A DNA stretch of 64,000 nt from an uncultured Acidimicrobiia bacterium (GCA_963753185.1 CAVWBO010000007.1:1537140-1601139), one strand, 5' to 3'; counted from the first letter of the stretch, positions 15,474 to 33,124 are shown. Made by a program: numbers and translations. Notes: generated by a model not told the origin, from the sequence alone.

Positions 15474-15889
<416 letters not shown>

Positions 15890-21958: not shown

Positions 21959-22060
21959 GTCACGAGCCGAGTGTCGTCCGAGAAGTCGCTTCCTGCTGTT
22001 CGCGCCGCTCGAGTCGGGCCGCCGGTACCTAGCATCGGGTGGTCGTGAAGGCTCCTACCC

Positions 22061-22480
22061 GTGCATGAACTCGCCCTTGCGGACGCCGTGATCAAGGCGG
22101 CCCTGCGCGCAGCGGACGATGCGGGCATCGCCGCCATCGAGCGAATCGTTGTGTCCGTCGGTGAGCTCCAACAGATCGAGCCGGAACTGTTCACGTACTC
22201 CCTCACAACCGTGCTGCCCCAAAGCGACCCCCGACTCGAAGGCACGTCGTTCGACGTGGAGATCGCCGAGGCGCGCTTCGCGTGCCGTTCGTGCAGCGCG
22301 ACCTATGGTCGGGCAGACATCGATCTCGGAGCGCATGAGGGAGAGTCGGTCCACTTCATCCCGGAGCTGCTCCACGCCTTCGCAGGGTGTCCACGTTGTA
22401 CGAGCCCCGACTTCGACATCATCGAGGGCAGGGGCATCCTGCTCAGGCGTATCGTCGGGCGCGCGGGGGACCGACGGTGA
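22061..22480 (+). CDS. hypA: HypA/HybF-family nickel metallochaperone
   Basis: It has the N-terminal MHE Ni-binding motif and two CxxC pairs (CRSC ... CPRC). A His/Glu-rich insert of about 30 aa sits between the pairs. Confidence 0.75.
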   Translation: MHELALADAVIKAALRAADDAGIAAIERIVVSVGELQQIEPELFTYSLTTVLPQSDPRLEGTSFDVEIAEARFACRSCSATYGRADIDLGAHEGESVHFIPELLHAFAGCPRCTSPDFDIIEGRGILLRRIVGRAGDRR

Positions 22481-22521
22481 CTGACAGCATCGATCCGAGG
22501 CGCGGTGTGGTGGAGGAGCGG

Positions 22522-23214
22522 ATGTCGGGCATTCGCCGGATCGTTGCGGTCACGGGCTCCAAGGGAGGGATCGGCAAAAGCGTCTTGGCAACCCTGCTCG
22601 CACTCCATCTCGCAGACACCGGTCGACGTGTCGGGCTGTTCGACCTCGACCTGACGTCACCGACCGATCACCTCGTCCTCGGTGCGCGTTTCGGGGTACC
22701 CGACGAGGTGTTCGGCATCGATCCGTACCGGGTCGAAGGCGTCGACCTCATGTCGATCGCCGGCTTGTCGCACGGAGCTGCACTTGCCCTTCGCGGGACT
22801 GGCGCGACCGAGGCGCTCCTGGAGATGCTTGCGATCACGCGGTGGGGCGAACTGGACCTGCTGGTGGTCGACATGCCGCCGGGTCTCGGGGACACGACCC
22901 TCGACGTCATCGAGCTCCTGCCGCGCACCGAGTTCCTGGTCGTTGCCGATGGTTCGCCCGTCGTGATCGACAGCGTCAGGCGGGCGGTGGACCTCCTCGT
23001 GTCGCTCGGCAAGCCGATCATCGGCGTCTTCGAGAACATGTCCAGGGGAGATGCCGGTGCGGTCGAGCGACTCGCGATCTCGGCTCGGATCGCGTACCTC
23101 GGCGTTGCAGGGTCCGATCCGGGGCTCGAGGGTGCCATCGGTGACGGTCGGGCCCTGCGCGCAACGAACCTGTACCGATCGATGCGCGGGTTGGCGGCCC
23201 ATGTCCATCTATGA
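22522..23214 (+). CDS. Mrp/NBP35 (MinD-superfamily) P-loop ATPase
   Basis: It has the deviant Walker A GSKGGIGKS and the DMPPGLGDT signature, but no C-terminal CxxC. An alternative GTG start at 22477 overlaps the hypA stop as GTGA. Confidence 0.75.
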   Translation: MSGIRRIVAVTGSKGGIGKSVLATLLALHLADTGRRVGLFDLDLTSPTDHLVLGARFGVPDEVFGIDPYRVEGVDLMSIAGLSHGAALALRGTGATEALLEMLAITRWGELDLLVVDMPPGLGDTTLDVIELLPRTEFLVVADGSPVVIDSVRRAVDLLVSLGKPIIGVFENMSRGDAGAVERLAISARIAYLGVAGSDPGLEGAIGDGRALRATNLYRSMRGLAAHVHL

Positions 23215-23383
23215 GGCGCATGTCAGCGGTTCGCGGACGGACGATCGGTTCATACCCATTGGATGATGCAGCTCTGATGCGTTCCGTGTTGACTGTTCGA
23301 AGGAGACCGTGGCGGACGGCGCCGACGGACAAACAGGGATGTAGGATCCTGTATCACCCCAAGGACGATGGAGGAAGGCGACG

Positions 23384-23815
23384 ATGATCAAACACGGACC
23401 CGTTGATGTGTACGTACTGGCGTTGGGAGCGCCAAGATTCGATGGCGCGATCCTGAGCGAGCTCCAGCACCAGACCGCCAAGGGGATCATCCGTGTGCTC
23501 GACGCCATGGTGTTGTTCAAGGACGAGGGCGGGGCGTGCTTCACGCTCGACATGGAGGACCTTCCCGAGGAGGACCTGGCAGCCCTGTCGTTCATCGAAT
23601 CGGGAACACGGGGCATGTTCGACGCCGAGGACGCCGACACGCTGTGGGAGGGAATGGTGCCCGGTTCCGCTGTCGTAGCCCTCGCGATCGAACACACGTG
23701 GGCAGTCGATCTCGTGAACGCGTTCCACGCGAACGATGTCGAAGTCGCTCTGCACTTCCGCGTCCCCTCACCCATCGTCGACGAGGCCCTCGCCGCGGTC
23801 GAGGCAGCACACTGA
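23384..23815 (+). CDS. Conserved hypothetical protein
   Basis: A good RBS (GGAGGAAGG) precedes the ATG. The ORF is 143 aa and is followed by a SHOCT gene. Confidence 0.45.
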   Translation: MIKHGPVDVYVLALGAPRFDGAILSELQHQTAKGIIRVLDAMVLFKDEGGACFTLDMEDLPEEDLAALSFIESGTRGMFDAEDADTLWEGMVPGSAVVALAIEHTWAVDLVNAFHANDVEVALHFRVPSPIVDEALAAVEAAH

Positions 23816-24152: not shown

Positions 24153-25113
24153 ATGAGTGACTTCTCATGGCCGGCGACGATCGGCGCCCTCATCGACTCC
24201 GAGGACCTGTCGCGACAGGCGGCAGCGAGAGCGATGGCCGAGATCATGTCCGGTCGCGCCTCCGACGCGCAGATCAGCGCCTTCATCGTCGCACTGCGGA
24301 CCAAGCGCGAGACCGCCGATGAGGTGGCGGGAATGGTCGACGCGATGATGGACGCAGCCGTGACGGCAAACGTTCCCAACTCGGTCGACATCGTCGGGAC
24401 GGGCGGCGACGGATTCGGGACGTTCAACGTCTCGACGACGGCGGCCTTCATCGCCGCAGGCGCCGGTGTCCGGATCGCCAAGCACGGCAACCGCGCCGCA
24501 TCATCCAAGACGGGTTCCGCCGACCTCCTCGAGGCACTCGGATTCGACATCGAGCTCGGACCCGATCAGGTTGCGCGGATGGTCGACGAATCGAACTTCG
24601 GCTTCTTCTTCGCCCCGAGGTACCACCCCGCGATGCGCCACGCCGCGAGCTGCGCGGAGGGACCTTGGCGTTCGGACCGTCTTCAACTTCCTGGGACCGC
24701 TGTGCAATCCCGCCGGTGCGCGCATGAGCGTCGGCGTTTCCGATCCACGCATGGCCGAGGTCATGATCGAGGTCCTTGCGGCCAGAGGTGTCGACCGCGC
24801 GTTCGTGGTGTACGGGGAGGAGGGCCTCGACGAACTCTCACCGGCAGGTCCGTCGAGGATCCATCGCCTGATCGACGGCGAGGTGACCGAGGCCGAGTTC
24901 ACACCAGAGGACTTCGGGATACGTCGCTCCCGTATCGAGGACATCGTCGGCGGTGACAGCGACCGAAACGTCGCGATCACCCTGGCGATCCTCGACGGCG
25001 AGGCAGGCCCACAACGAGACGCAGCCGTCATCAACGCGGCGCCCGCGATCATCCTGGGTGGGCTCGCCGACGGATTCGTGCATGCGGTCGAAGCTCGCCG
25101 AGGACGCCATTGA
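24153..25113 (+). CDS. trpD: Anthranilate phosphoribosyltransferase, frameshifted
   Basis: It has the GTGGDG and KHGNRA motifs. The frame changes near 24648-24660 within a GCGCGG run. The downstream part continues RDLGVRTVFNFLGPLCNPAGA in the +1 frame. Confidence 0.8.
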
Positions 25114-25212
25114 CAGCGGAGCCGCGAAACGGGCGCTGACGAAATCCTTGACGATCAATGAACTCGTCTCCAGATCGACGTGGTAGGGCGGGTGCACATC
25201 TACCGTCCACGG

Positions 25213-25833
25213 ATGAGTCGAGTGAACCTCACCCTGTCAGCGATCCTCATGCTCGTCGTGTCGGGGTGTGCCGCCTCCACGGACCCGACCCAACCGGACG
25301 GGACGACGACCTCCGTCACCACACCATCGACGACGCAATCGGAATCCGAGGCACCTTCGGCTGGCGAACCCACGGACACCACGACGACAACCGTCGATGA
25401 AGCACCATCGAGGCCCGACGGACCCGCAGCGCCCGACTTCACCCTCGCCCTCGGCGCGGACGGCGCATCGACCTTCTCACTCTCGCAGGAGGTCAAGCCC
25501 GTGTTCATGGTGTTCTGGGCTGAGTGGTGAAGCATCTGTCGACGGGAGTTGCCCGTCGTCGACTCTGTCGCTTCCGACTACCTCGCTGACGTCTCGTTCC
25601 TCGCGGTCGCCGGTCGGTCCGACATCGCACGGACGTCGGAGAGGGCGGACGAGCTGTTCAGTGAGAATCTGGCATGGGGGCTCGATGATCGCATCTGGGA
25701 CCTGTACGGCGTTCCCGGCCAGCCTGCGACCATCCTGATCGCCGACGGCGTGATCGTCGACCAGTGGTTCGGCGCTGCTCCCGAGGAGTTCATCCGCGAG
25801 CGCCTCGACAGGCTCGTCAGCCTGTCCGGGTGA
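25213..25833 (+). CDS. TlpA/ResA-like thiol-disulfide oxidoreductase lipoprotein with an in-frame TGA, a putative selenocysteine, at the first position of the CxxC motif
   Basis: The lipobox is LVVSGC. The thioredoxin-fold motifs read KPVFMVFWAEW-[TGA 25528-25530]-SICRRELP ... YGVPGQPATILIADGVIV. Both halves are in the same frame. Confidence 0.6.
25540..25558 (+). promoter_or_regulatory. Candidate bacterial SECIS hairpin
   Basis: CGACGGG-AGUUG-CCCGUCG forms a 7-bp GC stem with a 5-nt loop. It starts 12 nt after the in-frame UGA. Confidence 0.4.
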
Positions 25834-26518
25834 CCCTGCGGTCGGCGAGGAATGCGGCGGCCATCCACCCCACTCCGACAAGGGCGGCGATCAGGTACAG
25901 AGCGACAGGGCCACCGTCGATCGAGATCCGGAGGGGTTCCGTGACGAGCCGCAGCGACCCCGCGGTGGCGATCGCCACGCCGGCGATGACTCCCGGCCAC
26001 GGCCGTGCCTTCCACTTCCACACGGCGAGGACACCTGCAACGAGGACGAATCCGATCGCGACATACAGCTCGACGGGATGCCTGGTCACCGTGCTCCCCG
26101 GAAGCGACCACGCCCACGGGACCCCTGATTCGACACCCAGGCATGCGTTCGACGTCACGCACCCGGCGTGCCATCCGGCGAGCCCCGCGAGTGCTGCGGG
26201 GGCGATCGCATCGGCGGTCGTTACGAGGTCCCGTCTGGCAAGGACGGCGAACACGACGAACGCGCCAACTGCGGCTGCCGTGGTCGATACGCCGCTTCGT
26301 ATGAGCAGGATCTGACCCGGGTCGCTGATCGGGTTGATCCCGGCGCCCACCATTGCCGAAAGCCTTCCAATGAAGACCCCAGCGATCGCAGAGGTGAGTC
26401 CCGCCTCCCACAGGTCGACGGCGCAACCCGCGGCGTTGCCTCTCGGCGCCTCCCATCGAAGCACGGTCCAGAAGGAGGCCACACCGATCGCCGCGGCTCC
26501 GAGGAGTGAGAACTCCAT
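25817..26518 (-). CDS. lgt: Prolipoprotein diacylglyceryl transferase
   Basis: It has the RHPVELYV (HPxQLYE-like) motif and GVFIGRLSAMV, and is polytopic. Its ATG overlaps the upstream tlpA stop as TGATG. Confidence 0.65.
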   Translation of the reverse strand: MEFSLLGAAAIGVASFWTVLRWEAPRGNAAGCAVDLWEAGLTSAIAGVFIGRLSAMVGAGINPISDPGQILLIRSGVSTTAAAVGAFVVFAVLARRDLVTTADAIAPAALAGLAGWHAGCVTSNACLGVESGVPWAWSLPGSTVTRHPVELYVAIGFVLVAGVLAVWKWKARPWPGVIAGVAIATAGSLRLVTEPLRISIDGGPVALYLIAALVGVGWMAAAFLADRRVTRTG

Positions 26519-27003
26519 CAGCGGTCGATCTCGTCGAGGTACCGCGCCATCGTGGGCTCGTCGATGACCCCGAAGTGCAGGTGGGCGAGAGTTCCGTCGG
26601 ATGCGTAGAAGTAGGTCAGCGGCACACCCGCCGTGCCACCGAGGTCGATCGGGATCCTCCCCGATCGATCACTCAGGTGAGTCATCTCGGCATCGCTGAG
26701 GAACTCAGCCATGAATACCCGAGCATCCGGGTCCCGATCCTTGACATTGAGCCCTATGAAGGTGACGGACGGCCGGCTGGTGCTCGCCGATGCGATGAGC
26801 GGCGCCTCGCTGCGACACGGCAGGCACCACGAGGCCCACACGTTGACGACCGCCGGAGCCGATGCGGTGATCTCGGCGAGGAGATCCTCCGTCGTCGTCG
26901 GTACGGGAGGATCGGGGAGGGGGCCCTGCGGAGACGATGTGCACGATGCGATCCCGATTGCCACAGCCAGGAACGCCGTGACGACGAAGGGTGGGAGCCG
27001 CAT
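26518..27003 (-). CDS. TlpA/ResA-like thiol-disulfide oxidoreductase lipoprotein (Cys form)
   Basis: The lipobox is IGIASC. It has the VVNVWASWCLPCRSEAP motif and a GVPLTYF segment. Confidence 0.8.
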   Translation of the reverse strand: MRLPPFVVTAFLAVAIGIASCTSSPQGPLPDPPVPTTTEDLLAEITASAPAVVNVWASWCLPCRSEAPLIASASTSRPSVTFIGLNVKDRDPDARVFMAEFLSDAEMTHLSDRSGRIPIDLGGTAGVPLTYFYASDGTLAHLHFGVIDEPTMARYLDEIDR

Positions 27004-27029
27004 GGAACCGAGCGTAGGGAGCGGAGGGG

Positions 27030-27657
27030 TCAATGCATCCGGGCTCGGAGTTCGGCCGCGATCTCCTCGACGTCGAGGCCTGCACCCGACGACGAGCGCG
27101 AGCAGGTGATACAGAAGGTCGGCTGCCTCTTCGATCACTCGCGAAGGATCGCCACCGAGCTCGAGGTCCTTCCGTGCGAACGCCACCTCTCCCGCTTCCT
27201 CGAGCACCTTGCGTGCGGCGAGATCCGGGTTCGAGATGAGCCTCGCCGTGTAGGAGACCTCCGGATCGGCGTCCGCGCGCGTCGCAATGATCCGGTCCAG
27301 ACGGTCGATGGTCCCGCCGAGTGACGCGCCGAGTGATGCGGCACGGGACGCTCCGAAGCATGTATCTGCACCCGTGTGGCAGGTGGGTCCGTCGGGCTGT
27401 GCGGTGACGAGGAGCGCATCGCCATCGCAGTCCACCGAAACGGAGAGCACCTTCAACGTGTTCCCGCTCGTCTCACCCTTCTTCCAGATGCGACCCCTCG
27501 TCCTGCTCCAGAAGTGCACGAACCCTGTGTCCTGGGTGAGGCGGAGTGCCTCGGCATCCATGAACCCGACCATCCGCACAGAGCCTGTGGCCTCGTCCTG
27601 GATCACGGAGACCACGAGGCCGTCGCTCGATGGTGTGAGATCGGAGAAGTCGATCAC
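27030..27657 (-). CDS. hisIE: Bifunctional phosphoribosyl-AMP cyclohydrolase / phosphoribosyl-ATP pyrophosphatase, frameshifted near the 3' end
   Basis: The HisI part contains GFMDAEAL...[17 protein letters not shown]. The HisE part contains LLYHLL. The HisE C-terminus ([17 protein letters not shown]) is in the +1 frame after a GGG run near 27085. A GTGA overlap links it to hisF. Confidence 0.8.
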
Positions 27658-28415
27658 GGCGTGCTCCTGACCGGGATCCCGGCGTCTGCGAGTGCGGCAT
27701 GGATCTCGCCGACCGTGTAGTGGTCGCGGTGGAAGATGGACGCCGCGAGCACGGCGTCCGCCCTTCCCGTTGCGAGGGCATCCGCCAGGTCCTTCGGGCC
27801 GCCCGCGCCGCCCGATGCGATGATCGGAACATCGACGCGGGCGCGAACGGCCTCGAGGAGCTCGAGGTCGTACCCCAGGTTCGTTCCGTCGCGATCCATC
27901 GATGTGATCAGGACCTCGCCCGCTCCGAGGCGACACGCACGAGCTGCCCAGTCCAGGGCGTCGAGCCCGATGTCGACGCGCCCTCCATGCGTGTGCACGG
28001 TCCAACTCGTCGCCGTGCGTCTGGCGTCGATGGCCACGACGACGCACTGCGATCCGAACGCCGCTGCGCACTCGCGGATCAGCCTCGGACGTTGTACAGC
28101 GGCGGAGTTCACGGCGACCTTGTCCGCCCCTGCCCTCAGGACAGCGCGCATGTCCGAGACCCCACGCACACCGCCTCCGACTGTGAGGGGGACGAAGACG
28201 TTCTCGGCCGTGCGCCGAACTGTCTCGAGCATCGTGGAGCGACCGGATGGTGTCGCGGCGATGTCGAGGAAGCAGATCTCGTCCGCGCCAGCATCTGCGT
28301 ACCGGGCGGCCATCTCAACCGGATCCCCTTCATCCGTGAGGTCGACGAAGTTCGTTCCCTTCACGACGCGGCCATCTGCCACGTCGAGGCATGGGATCAC
28401 ACGCCTACGCAGCAT
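27654..28415 (-). CDS. hisF: Imidazole glycerol phosphate synthase cyclase subunit
   Basis: It starts [12 protein letters not shown] and contains the VGGGVR motif. Confidence 0.9.
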
Positions 28416-30664: not shown

Positions 30665-31962
30665 GGTGTCGCCCCGAGCCTTGCCGTCACCGAGTTCGCG
30701 TGCGCGGTGAAGCCCTCGGCGCTCGCGATGGCGAGGATCGTCGGCGCCAGTGCGATCAGGCCGTCGCGGGTGAGGGTCTGCACCTGGCGCCACGAACCGA
30801 AGTCCTCCACAGCGAGCGGCCCATACGAACGCGCGAGGCCTCCCGTCGGCAGGACATGGTTCGCACCCGTTGCGTAGTCACCTGCCGCCTCCGGTGTCCA
30901 CGTCCCGATGAACACCGATCCCGCGTTCGGCACGCTGTCGGCAGCCTGCCTGGCGTCGGGTGCATGGATCGAGAGATGTTCAGGCGCCCACTCGTTGGCG
31001 AACTCCAGTGCCTGTGGGAGGTCCCTGGCGATGGCAACGAGCCCGTGGTTCACGAGTGCCGCGGCGATCGCCTCCCTGCGCTCCAGTCGGGGGAGGGCAG
31101 CGTCGATCTCGGCAAGGACATCCGACGCCATCGATGCGTCGGTCACGATGAGGGCGACAGCGGATTCGGCACCGTGCTCGGCCTGGCACATGACATCGGC
31201 GGCGACGACCACGGGGTCTGCTTTGCCGTCCACAACGACCGCTGCCTCGCTCGGCCCAGCCGGAAGGTCGATGCCGCAGGATCCGAACACCGCGAGCTTG
31301 GCGGCGGTCACCCACGGTCCTCCCGGTCCCACGATCTTGTCGACGCGTTCGATCGTCTCTGTTCCGTGTGCGAGCGCGGCGACCGCCTGCGCACCTCCCA
31401 TTGCATACACCGTGTCGACGTCGAGGAGGTGCGCAGCGGCGAGGACGACCGGGTCGACGACGCCATCTGGACCCGCCGGGGTCGCCACGACGACCCTGGG
31501 GACACCCGCGATCGCGGCTGGTACGACGCCCATGATCAGGGAAGAGGGATACAGTCCGCGACCGCCGGGCACGTACACGCCGACTGACGACAACGGTGTC
31601 CAAATGCGCTCGACGGTGACACCACCGATCGGGCTGACCGCGGTATCACTCGGCCGCTGTGGTCGATGCACGGTGGTGACGTGCCTGATCGATTCCTGCA
31701 GGGCCGTGAGGAGTGCAGGTGCGATGATCCCGGGTGCCTTCTCGATGTCCTCCGTCGGCACGACATGGGAGCCATCGGCGAGCGCGCCTCCATGCACAGA
31801 GCTGAAGCGGTCGAGCGCCGTGTCCCCGCCGGCGGCGACCTCGGCGACGATCGATGCCGCGAGTGCGAAGACCTCGGGGTCGGGCAGCGCCGAGCGGATC
31901 ACGGACGACGATCGGGTGGCCAGGTCGCGCGTGAGGTCGAACGTCGGGATCTCGATGGTCAT
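30661..31962 (-). CDS. hisD: Histidinol dehydrogenase
   Basis: It contains QAEHG and IDLPAGPSE, and is 434 aa. Confidence 0.9.
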   Translation of the reverse strand: MTIEIPTFDLTRDLATRSSSVIRSALPDPEVFALAASIVAEVAAGGDTALDRFSSVHGGALADGSHVVPTEDIEKAPGIIAPALLTALQESIRHVTTVHRPQRPSDTAVSPIGGVTVERIWTPLSSVGVYVPGGRGLYPSSLIMGVVPAAIAGVPRVVVATPAGPDGVVDPVVLAAAHLLDVDTVYAMGGAQAVAALAHGTETIERVDKIVGPGGPWVTAAKLAVFGSCGIDLPAGPSEAAVVVDGKADPVVVAADVMCQAEHGAESAVALIVTDASMASDVLAEIDAALPRLERREAIAAALVNHGLVAIARDLPQALEFANEWAPEHLSIHAPDARQAADSVPNAGSVFIGTWTPEAAGDYATGANHVLPTGGLARSYGPLAVEDFGSWRQVQTLTRDGLIALAPTILAIASAEGFTAHANSVTARLGATP

Positions 31963-32807
31963 GCGAGGACCTGGTCGACTGGCAGGACCAGGATCCCGGA
32001 GGCACCTGCGTCCTTGAGCCTCGGCAACACGTGCCACACATCGGCTGCGTCGACGACCGAGTGAACGGCGACCTTGCCCTCGACGGCGAGCGGCACGACC
32101 GTTGGCGCGTCGATGCCGGGGATGATTCGGGAGATGGCACCGACCGAGCTCGTCGGGGCGTTCATCACGACGTACCGCCTCCGCAATGCTGCCATCGCGG
32201 CGCGCAGCATCGTCACCACGGTGTCCGCAGTCTCTGAACGGGCCGCTCCCGTCGCCTCGACGAGGACGGCCTGGGATTCGAGGAGCGTCGCGATCGGCCG
32301 GAGGCCGTTCACCAACATGGTCGAGCCAGACGACACGAGGTCGGCGACCGCGTCGGCGATGTCGAGCTTCGGGGCGACTTCCACAGAGCCGGCGAGCGGA
32401 ACGGTGGTCACCGCGATGCCCTTGCCGGAGAAGAAGCGCTCCACCGTGTTCGGGTGCGAGGTCGCGACCCGCAGCGAGGCGAGGTCCTCGATGCTCGTCA
32501 TGGCGGACTCATCAGGCACGGCGGCGACGAGGGAGCACCGCCCGAAGCCGAGCTCGAGGGCGACCTCCAGGGGTGCCTGCATCTCGCGGATCATGTCGAG
32601 CCCGGTGACGCCGAGGTCAGCGACTCCGTCGGCGACGAGTTCGCCAACGTCCTTCGCACGGACGAAGAGGAGCTCGATCGGGGCATCGAGGACCGGTACC
32701 GCGAGGCTTCGCTCTGTCCGTTCGAAGCGAAACCCTGCCCTTCGGAACAGCTCGGTCGCCGGCTGTTCGAGCCGTCCCTTGTTCGGGAGCACGATCCGAA
32801 GTGTCAT
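31959..32807 (-). CDS. hisG: ATP phosphoribosyltransferase, long form with a C-terminal regulatory domain
   Basis: It starts MTLRIVLPNKGRL, contains DLVSSGSTM, and is 283 aa. Confidence 0.9.
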   Translation of the reverse strand: MTLRIVLPNKGRLEQPATELFRRAGFRFERTERSLAVPVLDAPIELLFVRAKDVGELVADGVADLGVTGLDMIREMQAPLEVALELGFGRCSLVAAVPDESAMTSIEDLASLRVATSHPNTVERFFSGKGIAVTTVPLAGSVEVAPKLDIADAVADLVSSGSTMLVNGLRPIATLLESQAVLVEATGAARSETADTVVTMLRAAMAALRRRYVVMNAPTSSVGAISRIIPGIDAPTVVPLAVEGKVAVHSVVDAADVWHVLPRLKDAGASGILVLPVDQVLA

Positions 32808-33124
32808 TCGGAATCCCTTCGCTCGATGCCCGCACGTTCGAGTGCTTCGACATACCCACCGGTGCCATGACGGAGCCACTGGGCGATCCTCGTGATCGTC
32901 GCCGTGGAAACGCCTGTGAGTTCGTGGATCTCGCGGTACGAGTGGCCCTCGGCAAGGCGTCTCACGACCTCCCACCGCGACGTCATCTCCTCGAGCTCAC
33001 GGCGCGTGCAGAGGTCTCGGAAGAAGCGTGCCGCCTCGTCGCGGGTCGTCAGGTCGACGATGGCATCCATGAGCGCGGCGGTCGACGCGTTGCGCCAGTC
33101 GTCCGATGTTGGCTGTGTCGTCAA
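32804..33124 (-). CDS. TrpR-related YerC/YecD-family DNA-binding protein, the first gene of the his operon
   Basis: It has a Trp-repressor-like HTH (SYREIHELTGVSTATITR). It starts at TTG and overlaps the hisG start as ATGA. Confidence 0.7.
   Translation of the reverse strand: MTTQPTSDDWRNASTAALMDAIVDLTTRDEAARFFRDLCTRRELEEMTSRWEVVRRLAEGHSYREIHELTGVSTATITRIAQWLRHGTGGYVEALERAGIERRDSE

Follow-up and report, generated by a model that had tools for sequence, protein, structure and literature searches.

Organization of the interrupted gene

The analyzed DNA is a stretch of 64,000 nucleotides, hereafter the window, from the genome of an uncultured Acidimicrobiia bacterium (GCA_963753185.1, CAVWBO010000007.1:1537140-1601139). 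Its positions 25213-25833 hold a gene for a TlpA-like thioredoxin-fold lipoprotein that is interrupted by a single in-frame TGA codon, which is very probably a selenocysteine (Sec) codon followed by a hairpin of the bacterial selenocysteine insertion sequence (bSECIS) type. A preliminary description of the locus, made from the sequence alone, had reported two open reading frames (ORFs) divided only by this codon, and we reproduced this result: the ORFs at 25180..25530 and 25549..25833 share one frame, the sole break between them is the TGA at 25528-25530, and reading straight through the stop gives KPVFMVFWAEW-stop-SICRRELPVVD. The features of the gene are as follows.

25213..25833, + strand: complete predicted selenoprotein gene for a TlpA-like thiol-disulfide oxidoreductase lipoprotein (206 codons including Sec106, plus terminator)
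25213..25269, + strand: signal peptide with lipobox, MSRVNLTLSAILMLVVSG-C (by sequence inspection)
25270..25422, + strand: low-complexity linker, rich in Thr, Ser, Pro and Glu, from the lipid anchor to the catalytic domain (sequence)
25423..25830, + strand: TlpA/ResA/DsbE-like thioredoxin-fold domain, from APDFTLAL to the C terminus (Pfam and PDB sequence matches)
25528..25530, + strand: UGA predicted to be read as Sec106, the putative attacking residue of the W-U-S-I-C active site (TGA of relatives, Cys homologs)
25537..25539, + strand: presumed resolving Cys109 (TGT) of the UxxC motif (invariant Cys, 134 of 134 sequences)
25540..25558, + strand: candidate bSECIS hairpin CGACGGG-AGUUG-CCCGUCG (RNAalifold, covariation, frozen codons, published constraints)
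25831..25833, + strand: true terminator, a TGA without SECIS-like context (sequence)

The probable start codon is ATG at 25213, which we prefer because the signal peptide then gains the positively charged residue R3. The motif-based lipobox reads LVVSG-C and places the codon of the putatively lipidated Cys19 at 25267-25269; 126 of 130 family members have a lipobox-like motif, and C19 is almost invariant. The linker that follows differs in both length and sequence across the family, as judged from the alignment with Cys homologs. For the domain and protein searches, Cys was substituted at the internal stop. In the substituted protein, the Pfam AhpC-TSA match (residues 71-181) and the Thioredoxin and Redoxin matches all run across this position; a single Pfam domain spans the TGA, and thus the stop interrupts one domain. 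The AhpC-TSA match that bridges the stop agrees with the earlier statement that the flanking thioredoxin fold is intact.

Conservation of the active-site TGA codon

DNA was taken for 80 metagenome loci and 80 species-level genome loci, nearly all of them from metagenome-assembled genomes (MAGs) of Acidimicrobiia. The codon after FWAEW is TGA in 74 of 75 metagenome loci and in 72 of 73 species-level genome loci (146 of 148 together), and the only exceptions, L055 and L138, both have TGC. The preliminary description had named uniform TGC or TGT among orthologs as a finding that would speak against Sec, and this is not the pattern found. After redundancy is removed, TGA occupies this position in 132 of 134 distinct sequences, some of which share just ~43% identity with the window protein. 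In L081 and L082, the closest genomes (83% and 80% amino-acid identity, respectively), both the TGA and the hairpin are the same. The sequence following the TGA always continues in frame as xxC[R/G/Q/K]RELPV[I/V]D.

The protein search returned two kinds of match, namely TlpA-like proteins from Acidimicrobiia MAGs that are full-length and contain FWAEWCPxC, and 27 divergent short proteins, which stop exactly at FWAEW. In the 31 full-length Cys homologs reading FWAEWCPxC, the TGA column is an invariant Cys, and in alignments with thioredoxins of known structure it falls on the first Cys of WCGPC. These two alignments uphold the placement of the TGA at the first Cys of the W-CxxC motif that had been proposed from the window sequence.

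In a codon alignment of the 134 distinct sequences (132 with TGA), the residues W+49, G+50, Q+64, P+65, W+79 and G+81, counted from the TGA, are invariant. At G+50, Q+64, P+65 and G+81 synonymous codons are freely used; Gly+50, for instance, is encoded by GGC in 55 sequences, GGT in 43, GGG in 20 and GGA in 16. The combination of invariant residues and free synonymous codons indicates purifying selection on the protein downstream of the TGA. Q170 and P171 of the window protein are invariant both in the alignment of full-length Cys homologs and in the 134-sequence Sec-form set, and Pro171 is predicted to adopt the cis conformation. The Cys109 column contains TGC in 79 and TGT in 55 of the 134 sequences, and thus its synonymous site is free. 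The genes of the family terminate in TAG (72 of 134), TGA (54) or TAA (8); since TGA ends 54 of these genes, including the one in the window, the genetic code is not reassigned.

Several individual loci are worth recording. One MAG contig (L092) carries two tandem gene copies, at positions 2737 and 3406 (+), both of which have the active-site TGA and the hairpin; the first copy reads RRELSVVAKL and has a G-U pair in the stem. At L165 (405-407), the JGI gene call P0001 reads FWAEWWGSC, where the second W corresponds to TGA in the DNA; the W appears at the Sec position because the gene caller applied a code with TGA as a sense codon. The Cys forms at L161-L163 (P0026, P0027), which are more distant and read CPxCRRELPVVD, lie in a different neighbourhood, near another TlpA-like gene and ccmH, which suggests a link of this Cys branch to cytochrome c maturation.

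Structure, constraint and covariation of the hairpin

The hairpin CGACGGG-AGUUG-CCCGUCG at 25540-25558 was recovered as described earlier, beginning 12 nt past the U of the UGA. It consists of a conserved 6-bp core (25541-25546 with 25552-25557), to which the window sequence adds a seventh pair (25540/25558), and of the apical loop AGUUG (25547-25551); its predicted stability is -13.9 kcal/mol over 27 nt. In single-sequence folding, the z-score of the 71-nt fold is only -1.03, and 15 of the 1581 TGA trinucleotides of the window (~1%) precede a perfect 7-bp hairpin at an equal distance. On the window sequence alone, these figures make the hairpin weak evidence, whereas the comparative data place it far beyond chance.

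The codon alignment reveals synonymous freezing that is confined to the hairpin codons, while conserved Arg, Leu and Pro columns outside the hairpin draw on the full set of codons. Arg+5 is encoded by CGG in 120 of 120 sequences, whereas the comparison column Arg+89 uses six codons. Leu+7 is encoded by TTG in 98 of 132 sequences, a codon that is rare at most other Leu columns (3 of 132 at Leu-26 and 1 of 106 at Leu+51). The Pro+8 codon is CCC in 122 of 133 sequences, compared with CCG in 72 and CCC in 53 at Pro-10, and the Val+9 codon is GTC in 104 of 129, compared with GTC in 64 and GTG in 55 at Val-9.

Covariation was assessed in 126 distinct segments of 54 nt. RNAalifold independently gives the same 6-bp stem (25541-25546 with 25552-25557). 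Compensatory double changes from GC to AU occur at two stem pairs, as pair 20/36 is GC in 99 segments, AU in 15 and CG in 3, and pair 23/33 is GC in 115 and AU in 8; pair 21/35 is AU in 84 and GU in 36. Overall, 89% of the cells are paired, and sliding the partner lowers this figure to 37-68%; neither the observed covariation score nor the paired-cell percentage was reached by any of 500 shuffles or by any slid control. In several compensations, an Arg-to-Gln change in the 5' arm is matched by a silent change in the 3' arm, either CCC to CCT or GTC to GTT. With regard to conservation in orthologs, which the preliminary description had proposed as a check, the hairpin is therefore conserved, with compensatory changes and frozen synonymous sites, and these patterns point to selection acting on it at the RNA level.

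The Cys forms offer a comparison. L138, which is an ortholog because trpD lies upstream of it, has TGC followed by GCC CAG GAG ATG CCC GTC, and the hairpin is lost. Cys forms that keep RRELPV encode it as CGC-GAG-CTC-CCG-GTG, CGG-GAG-CTA-CCC-GTC or CGG-GAG-TTG-CCG-GTT.

The bSECIS consensus comprises a loop of 3-9 nt, an upper stem of 4-16 bp, a G in the first two loop positions, a UGA-to-loop distance of 16-37 nt and a minimum free energy of at most -7.5 kcal/mol (PMC13188914). The hairpin agrees with all of these published constraints, given its 5-nt loop, its stem of 6-7 bp, a G followed by U from loop position 2, its 16-nt spacing and its stability of -13.9 kcal/mol. The loop G is kept in 118 of 126 family members. 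The spacing had earlier been judged right for SelB-dependent recoding, and at 16 nt to the loop it falls within the published range, at its lower limit.

The element resembles the E. coli fdhF type and the bSECIS model of Zhang and Gladyshev in being a coding-region hairpin directly 3' of the UGA with a small loop, and it shares with the general bSECIS model the G-U at loop positions 2-3, the 16-nt spacing and the stable stem. It differs from fdhF and the general model in its very short stem of 6-7 bp, in the absence of a bulged U and in a spacing at the lower limit of the model. In fdhF itself, GGUUG is generally placed in the 5' arm and the apical loop is given as GGUC, which makes the earlier likening of the apical loop to a GGUUG loop of fdhF a loose one. 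An Rfam search of the window at gathering thresholds and a permissive search of 25450-25650 yielded no SECIS model and chance hits only; since bacterial SECIS elements are poorly covered in Rfam, this result carries no information and does not count against the hairpin.

A near copy of the hairpin sequence with two mismatches, ACGGGAGCGGCCCGT, is present at 32238-32252 (-). It lies inside an open frame (31959-32996, -) with no in-frame TGA before it and is consistent with chance, as six such matches were found against 2.9 expected. No second credible in-frame UGA gene was found within the 64-kb window, and the same hairpin motif was not found after a TGA of another gene in any locus.

Alternative explanations of the TGA codon

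Were the TGA an artifact of sequencing or assembly, or a nonsense mutation of recent origin, the gene would be an ordinary Cys-type tlpA with a true TGC or TGT, or a pseudogene. Both codons are one base away from TGA, and the window does hold at least one apparent indel, since trpD is frameshifted here and intact in L081 and L082. The preliminary description had considered a miscall of TGC or TGT the less likely explanation, and the identical TGA and hairpin of L081 and L082 bear this out: a TGA that is shared with these and other independent assemblies, 146 of 148 in all and the closest genomes among them, excludes an error or nonsense mutation private to the window. Moreover, the frame downstream is under purifying selection, and a pseudogene would not retain a frozen hairpin; we regard this explanation as extremely improbable. 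A comparably negligible probability attaches to TGA being a sense codon of the lineage (translation table 4 or 25), hence Trp or Gly. The JGI call that rendered the TGA of P0001 as W would fit such a code, but TGA terminates 54 of 134 family genes, this one included (25831-25833), no other coding-like in-frame TGA was found within the 64-kb window, and the G+C content of the window is 66%. The known lineages that use codes 4 and 25 are unlike a genome of 66% G+C. The UGA might also be a real terminator, with two products made from the locus, a lipoprotein stub and a C-terminal fragment starting from TTG at 25549. Gene callers make exactly such a split, and the TTG is present at 25549; however, this TTG is the Leu codon of the hairpin loop and is replaced by CTC, CTT, CTG or TTA in 34 of 132 relatives, and thus there is no conserved restart codon. 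In addition, such a split would run through the active site of a single thioredoxin-fold domain and leave the second fragment without a signal peptide, so that two separate products are highly improbable.

More weight, albeit still very little, may be given to read-through of the UGA without Sec, for instance if the hairpin promoted near-cognate insertion of Trp or Cys, which would give a full-length protein that is not a selenoprotein. Downstream hairpins can stimulate read-through generally, and no Sec machinery gene was seen in the window or in 165 related loci. The codon, however, sits exactly at the redox-active Cys, a classic Sec/Cys pair, and the loop size, the G-U motif of the loop and the spacing of the hairpin all fit a SelB-type bSECIS. 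An enzyme with Trp as its catalytic residue would be inactive, and if Cys were inserted there would be no reason for 99% of lineages to retain the UGA. SelA, SelB and SelD, together with many selenoproteins, have, besides, been reported from members of the class.

We consider it very probable that UGA 25528-25530 is a Sec codon in a TlpA-like lipoprotein and that it is recoded by the standard bacterial mechanism. The following observations weigh against this assignment. ARAGORN found no tRNA-Sec in the window or in 60 related loci, and tblastn with approximate E. coli sequences of SelA, SelB and SelD gave no match in the window and 160-165 loci. Eight of 126 Sec forms have a loop that lacks the G and so fall off the consensus bSECIS model. 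The codon control provided by the Cys forms consists of only three or four distinct sequences.

The Sec machinery genes are not linked to the TlpA-like gene in the window or in the related loci, and the support for their presence comes at class level, from the literature. Ca. Microthrix belongs to the class Acidimicrobiia, and a look-up confirmed the same for Ilumatobacter. Ilumatobacter coccineus, I. nonamiensis and Ca. Microthrix parvicella are all listed as positive for SelD, SelA and SelB, with 15, 10 and 7 selenoproteins, respectively (Peng et al. 2016, Tables S1 and S2). A 2026 preprint reports selA, selB, selC and selD in all Actinomarina genomes (Actinomarinales).

Relation to known selenoprotein families

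The preliminary description had called thioredoxin-fold UxxC proteins a known selenoprotein class, and TlpA-like UxxC proteins have indeed been catalogued since 2005. A family of this type (cd02966), termed 'Thiol-disulfide isomerase-like protein', was first predicted in the Sargasso Sea metagenome by Zhang, Fomenko and Gladyshev 2005 (PMC1088965) and is listed in reviews of 2022 and 2026 (PMC9312934, PMC13188914). Prokaryotic catalogues also list Prx-like thiol:disulfide oxidoreductases, a thiol:disulfide interchange protein and a UGC-type TlpA family. The window protein has in common with the 'Thiol-disulfide isomerase-like' family (representatives MGB1650493.1 and MAK15852.1), set beside it by domain and motif description only, the TlpA-like thioredoxin fold, a UxxC motif with Sec first, a single Sec and widespread Cys homologs. 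By the rule of the field that the same domain and the same Sec motif make the same family, the window protein would be filed under this name.

PDB sequence matches extend over most of the domain, with E values from 5e-10 to 4e-06, and include M. tuberculosis DsbF (3ios, query 14-129) and DsbE/Mpt53 (1lu4), Bacillus ResA (1st9, 3c73, 4nmu) and DsbE (3gl3). DsbF, Mpt53 and ResA are likewise exported and have W-CxxC in the same place; however, they use Cys where the window protein is predicted to have Sec. In the NCBIfam comparison, the window protein scores 44.2 bits against a cut-off of 170 for ResA (NF002854), 24.4 against 123 for DsbE (TIGR00385) and 22.8 against 230 for TlpA (NF047696), and since these scores are far under the cut-offs, it is not an ortholog of the ResA, TlpA or DsbE groups. 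It is similar to NF041057 (Rcas_1661 thioredoxin-like (seleno)lipoprotein) and NF041054 (ResA-like WAxxUGC) in that all are thioredoxin-fold proteins, exported or lipoproteins, with Sec in a CxxC-type motif. Nevertheless, the sub-cut-off scores of 20.6 bits (cut-off 190) and 16.5 bits (cut-off 300), respectively, assign the window protein to neither of these families, and its motif WAEW-U-xx-C differs from the UGC of NF041054.

The predicted protein can accordingly be described as a new candidate member of the catalogued TlpA-like UxxC selenoproteins with a presumably standard recoding mechanism, and it changes neither the known selenoprotein classes nor the mechanism of recoding. Less ordinary is the distribution of the gene. 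The 2016 survey counted the 'Thiol-disulfide isomerase-like protein' family in 3 of about 5200 genomes, whereas here the clade nearly always has Sec (~99% UGA) and the gene is conserved, with fixed neighbours, in at least 72 Acidimicrobiia genomes at species level. Also less ordinary is its annotation: there is no curated model, and every public gene call encountered truncates the gene. No NCBIfam model covers the window protein, the protein search returned no full-length, Sec-annotated protein of the Acidimicrobiia clade, and a full-text literature search with the peptide string WAEWU found nothing relevant; the NCBI name for the Cys homologs is 'TlpA disulfide reductase family protein'. The absence from NCBIfam and the truncated public calls would fit a distinct, uncurated subfamily of extracytoplasmic seleno-lipoproteins, which we put forward tentatively as a possible fixed core gene of a large sediment and soil Acidimicrobiia clade that perhaps forms a dedicated redox pair at the cell surface with the Cys paralog beside lgt.

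Correction of the gene calls would restore a conserved cell-surface redox enzyme in these species-level genomes and mark widespread sediment, soil and marine Acidimicrobiia as selenium users. In addition, the ~130 divergent Sec forms, together with one hairpin-less Cys ortholog, constitute a natural data set on the constraint imposed by an in-frame SECIS, one that appears to act on the codons and even on the peptide (RRELPV).

Genomic context and proposed function

The genes flanking the predicted selenoprotein gene are listed below.

24153..25113, + strand: trpD, anthranilate phosphoribosyltransferase, upstream neighbour, frameshifted here (Pfam Glycos_transf_3)
25817..26518, - strand: lgt, prolipoprotein diacylglyceryl transferase, convergent downstream neighbour (Pfam LGT)
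26518..27003, - strand: second TlpA-like lipoprotein paralog with the ordinary Cys site WASWCLPC, adjoining lgt (ORF and Pfam)

This arrangement, trpD → tlpA(Sec) ← lgt ← tlpA(Cys), recurs among the related loci. In 100-115 loci, trpD is the immediate upstream neighbour in the same orientation, and lgt, whose 3' end overlaps the predicted selenoprotein gene by 17 nt, has the same position and strand in 85 loci. The Cys-type TlpA-like paralog is found in the same position in 73 loci, with hisIE and hisF next to it. The gene thus arranged differs from the ResA, TlpA and DsbE systems in its neighbours, which are trpD, lgt and the Cys paralog, and none of ccdA, resB and resC was seen among them.

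On the basis of the sequence features described above, the gene probably encodes a thiol-disulfide oxidoreductase of the TlpA/ResA/DsbE type that is anchored to the membrane and located outside the cytoplasm. In the proposed mechanism, UGA 25528-25530 would be recoded via the standard bacterial pathway, with a presumed dependence on SelB. The in-frame hairpin at 25540-25558, with its loop AGUUG, would serve as the SECIS and bind SelB carrying Sec-tRNA(Sec), which would deliver Sec as the ribosome arrives at the UGA; translation would then proceed through the remaining thioredoxin fold. As the hairpin lies within the reading frame, the codons CGN-CGG-GAG-UUG-CCC-GUC are fixed, and the peptide RRELPV is largely dictated. 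The product would be exported and lipidated at Cys19 by the Lgt enzyme encoded by the adjacent gene, and the flexible Thr/Ser/Pro linker would tether it at the outer face of the membrane. There, Sec106 may attack substrate disulfides and Cys109 may resolve the mixed selenenylsulfide, with the redox direction being either that of a reductase, as in ResA and TlpA, or that of an oxidase, as in mycobacterial DsbE and DsbF.

Further observations concern the neighbouring genes of the window. The trpD gene is represented by two overlapping frames (24153..24956 and 24466..25113), the counterparts of which are contiguous in one frame in L081 and L082; the split reflects either an assembly indel error or a recent frameshift. 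On the other side, hisIE and the Cys-type TlpA-like lipoprotein gene form one ORF of 517 codons at 26518-28071 (-), uninterrupted by any stop. Their counterparts in L081 match separately, ~80 nt apart, and the fusion may be due to another indel or to a lost hisIE stop. Upstream of trpD, the stretch 22049-23812 (+) encodes a hypA-like nickel metallochaperone, an Mrp/NUBPL-type P-loop ATPase, which overlaps the hypA-like gene in another frame, and a DUF6325 protein. This stretch is not conserved in the related loci, where the ATPase and the DUF6325 protein have no hits. Finally, the window contains a bacterial RNase P RNA of class A at 15474-15887 (-), identified by a full-length match of 288 bits.

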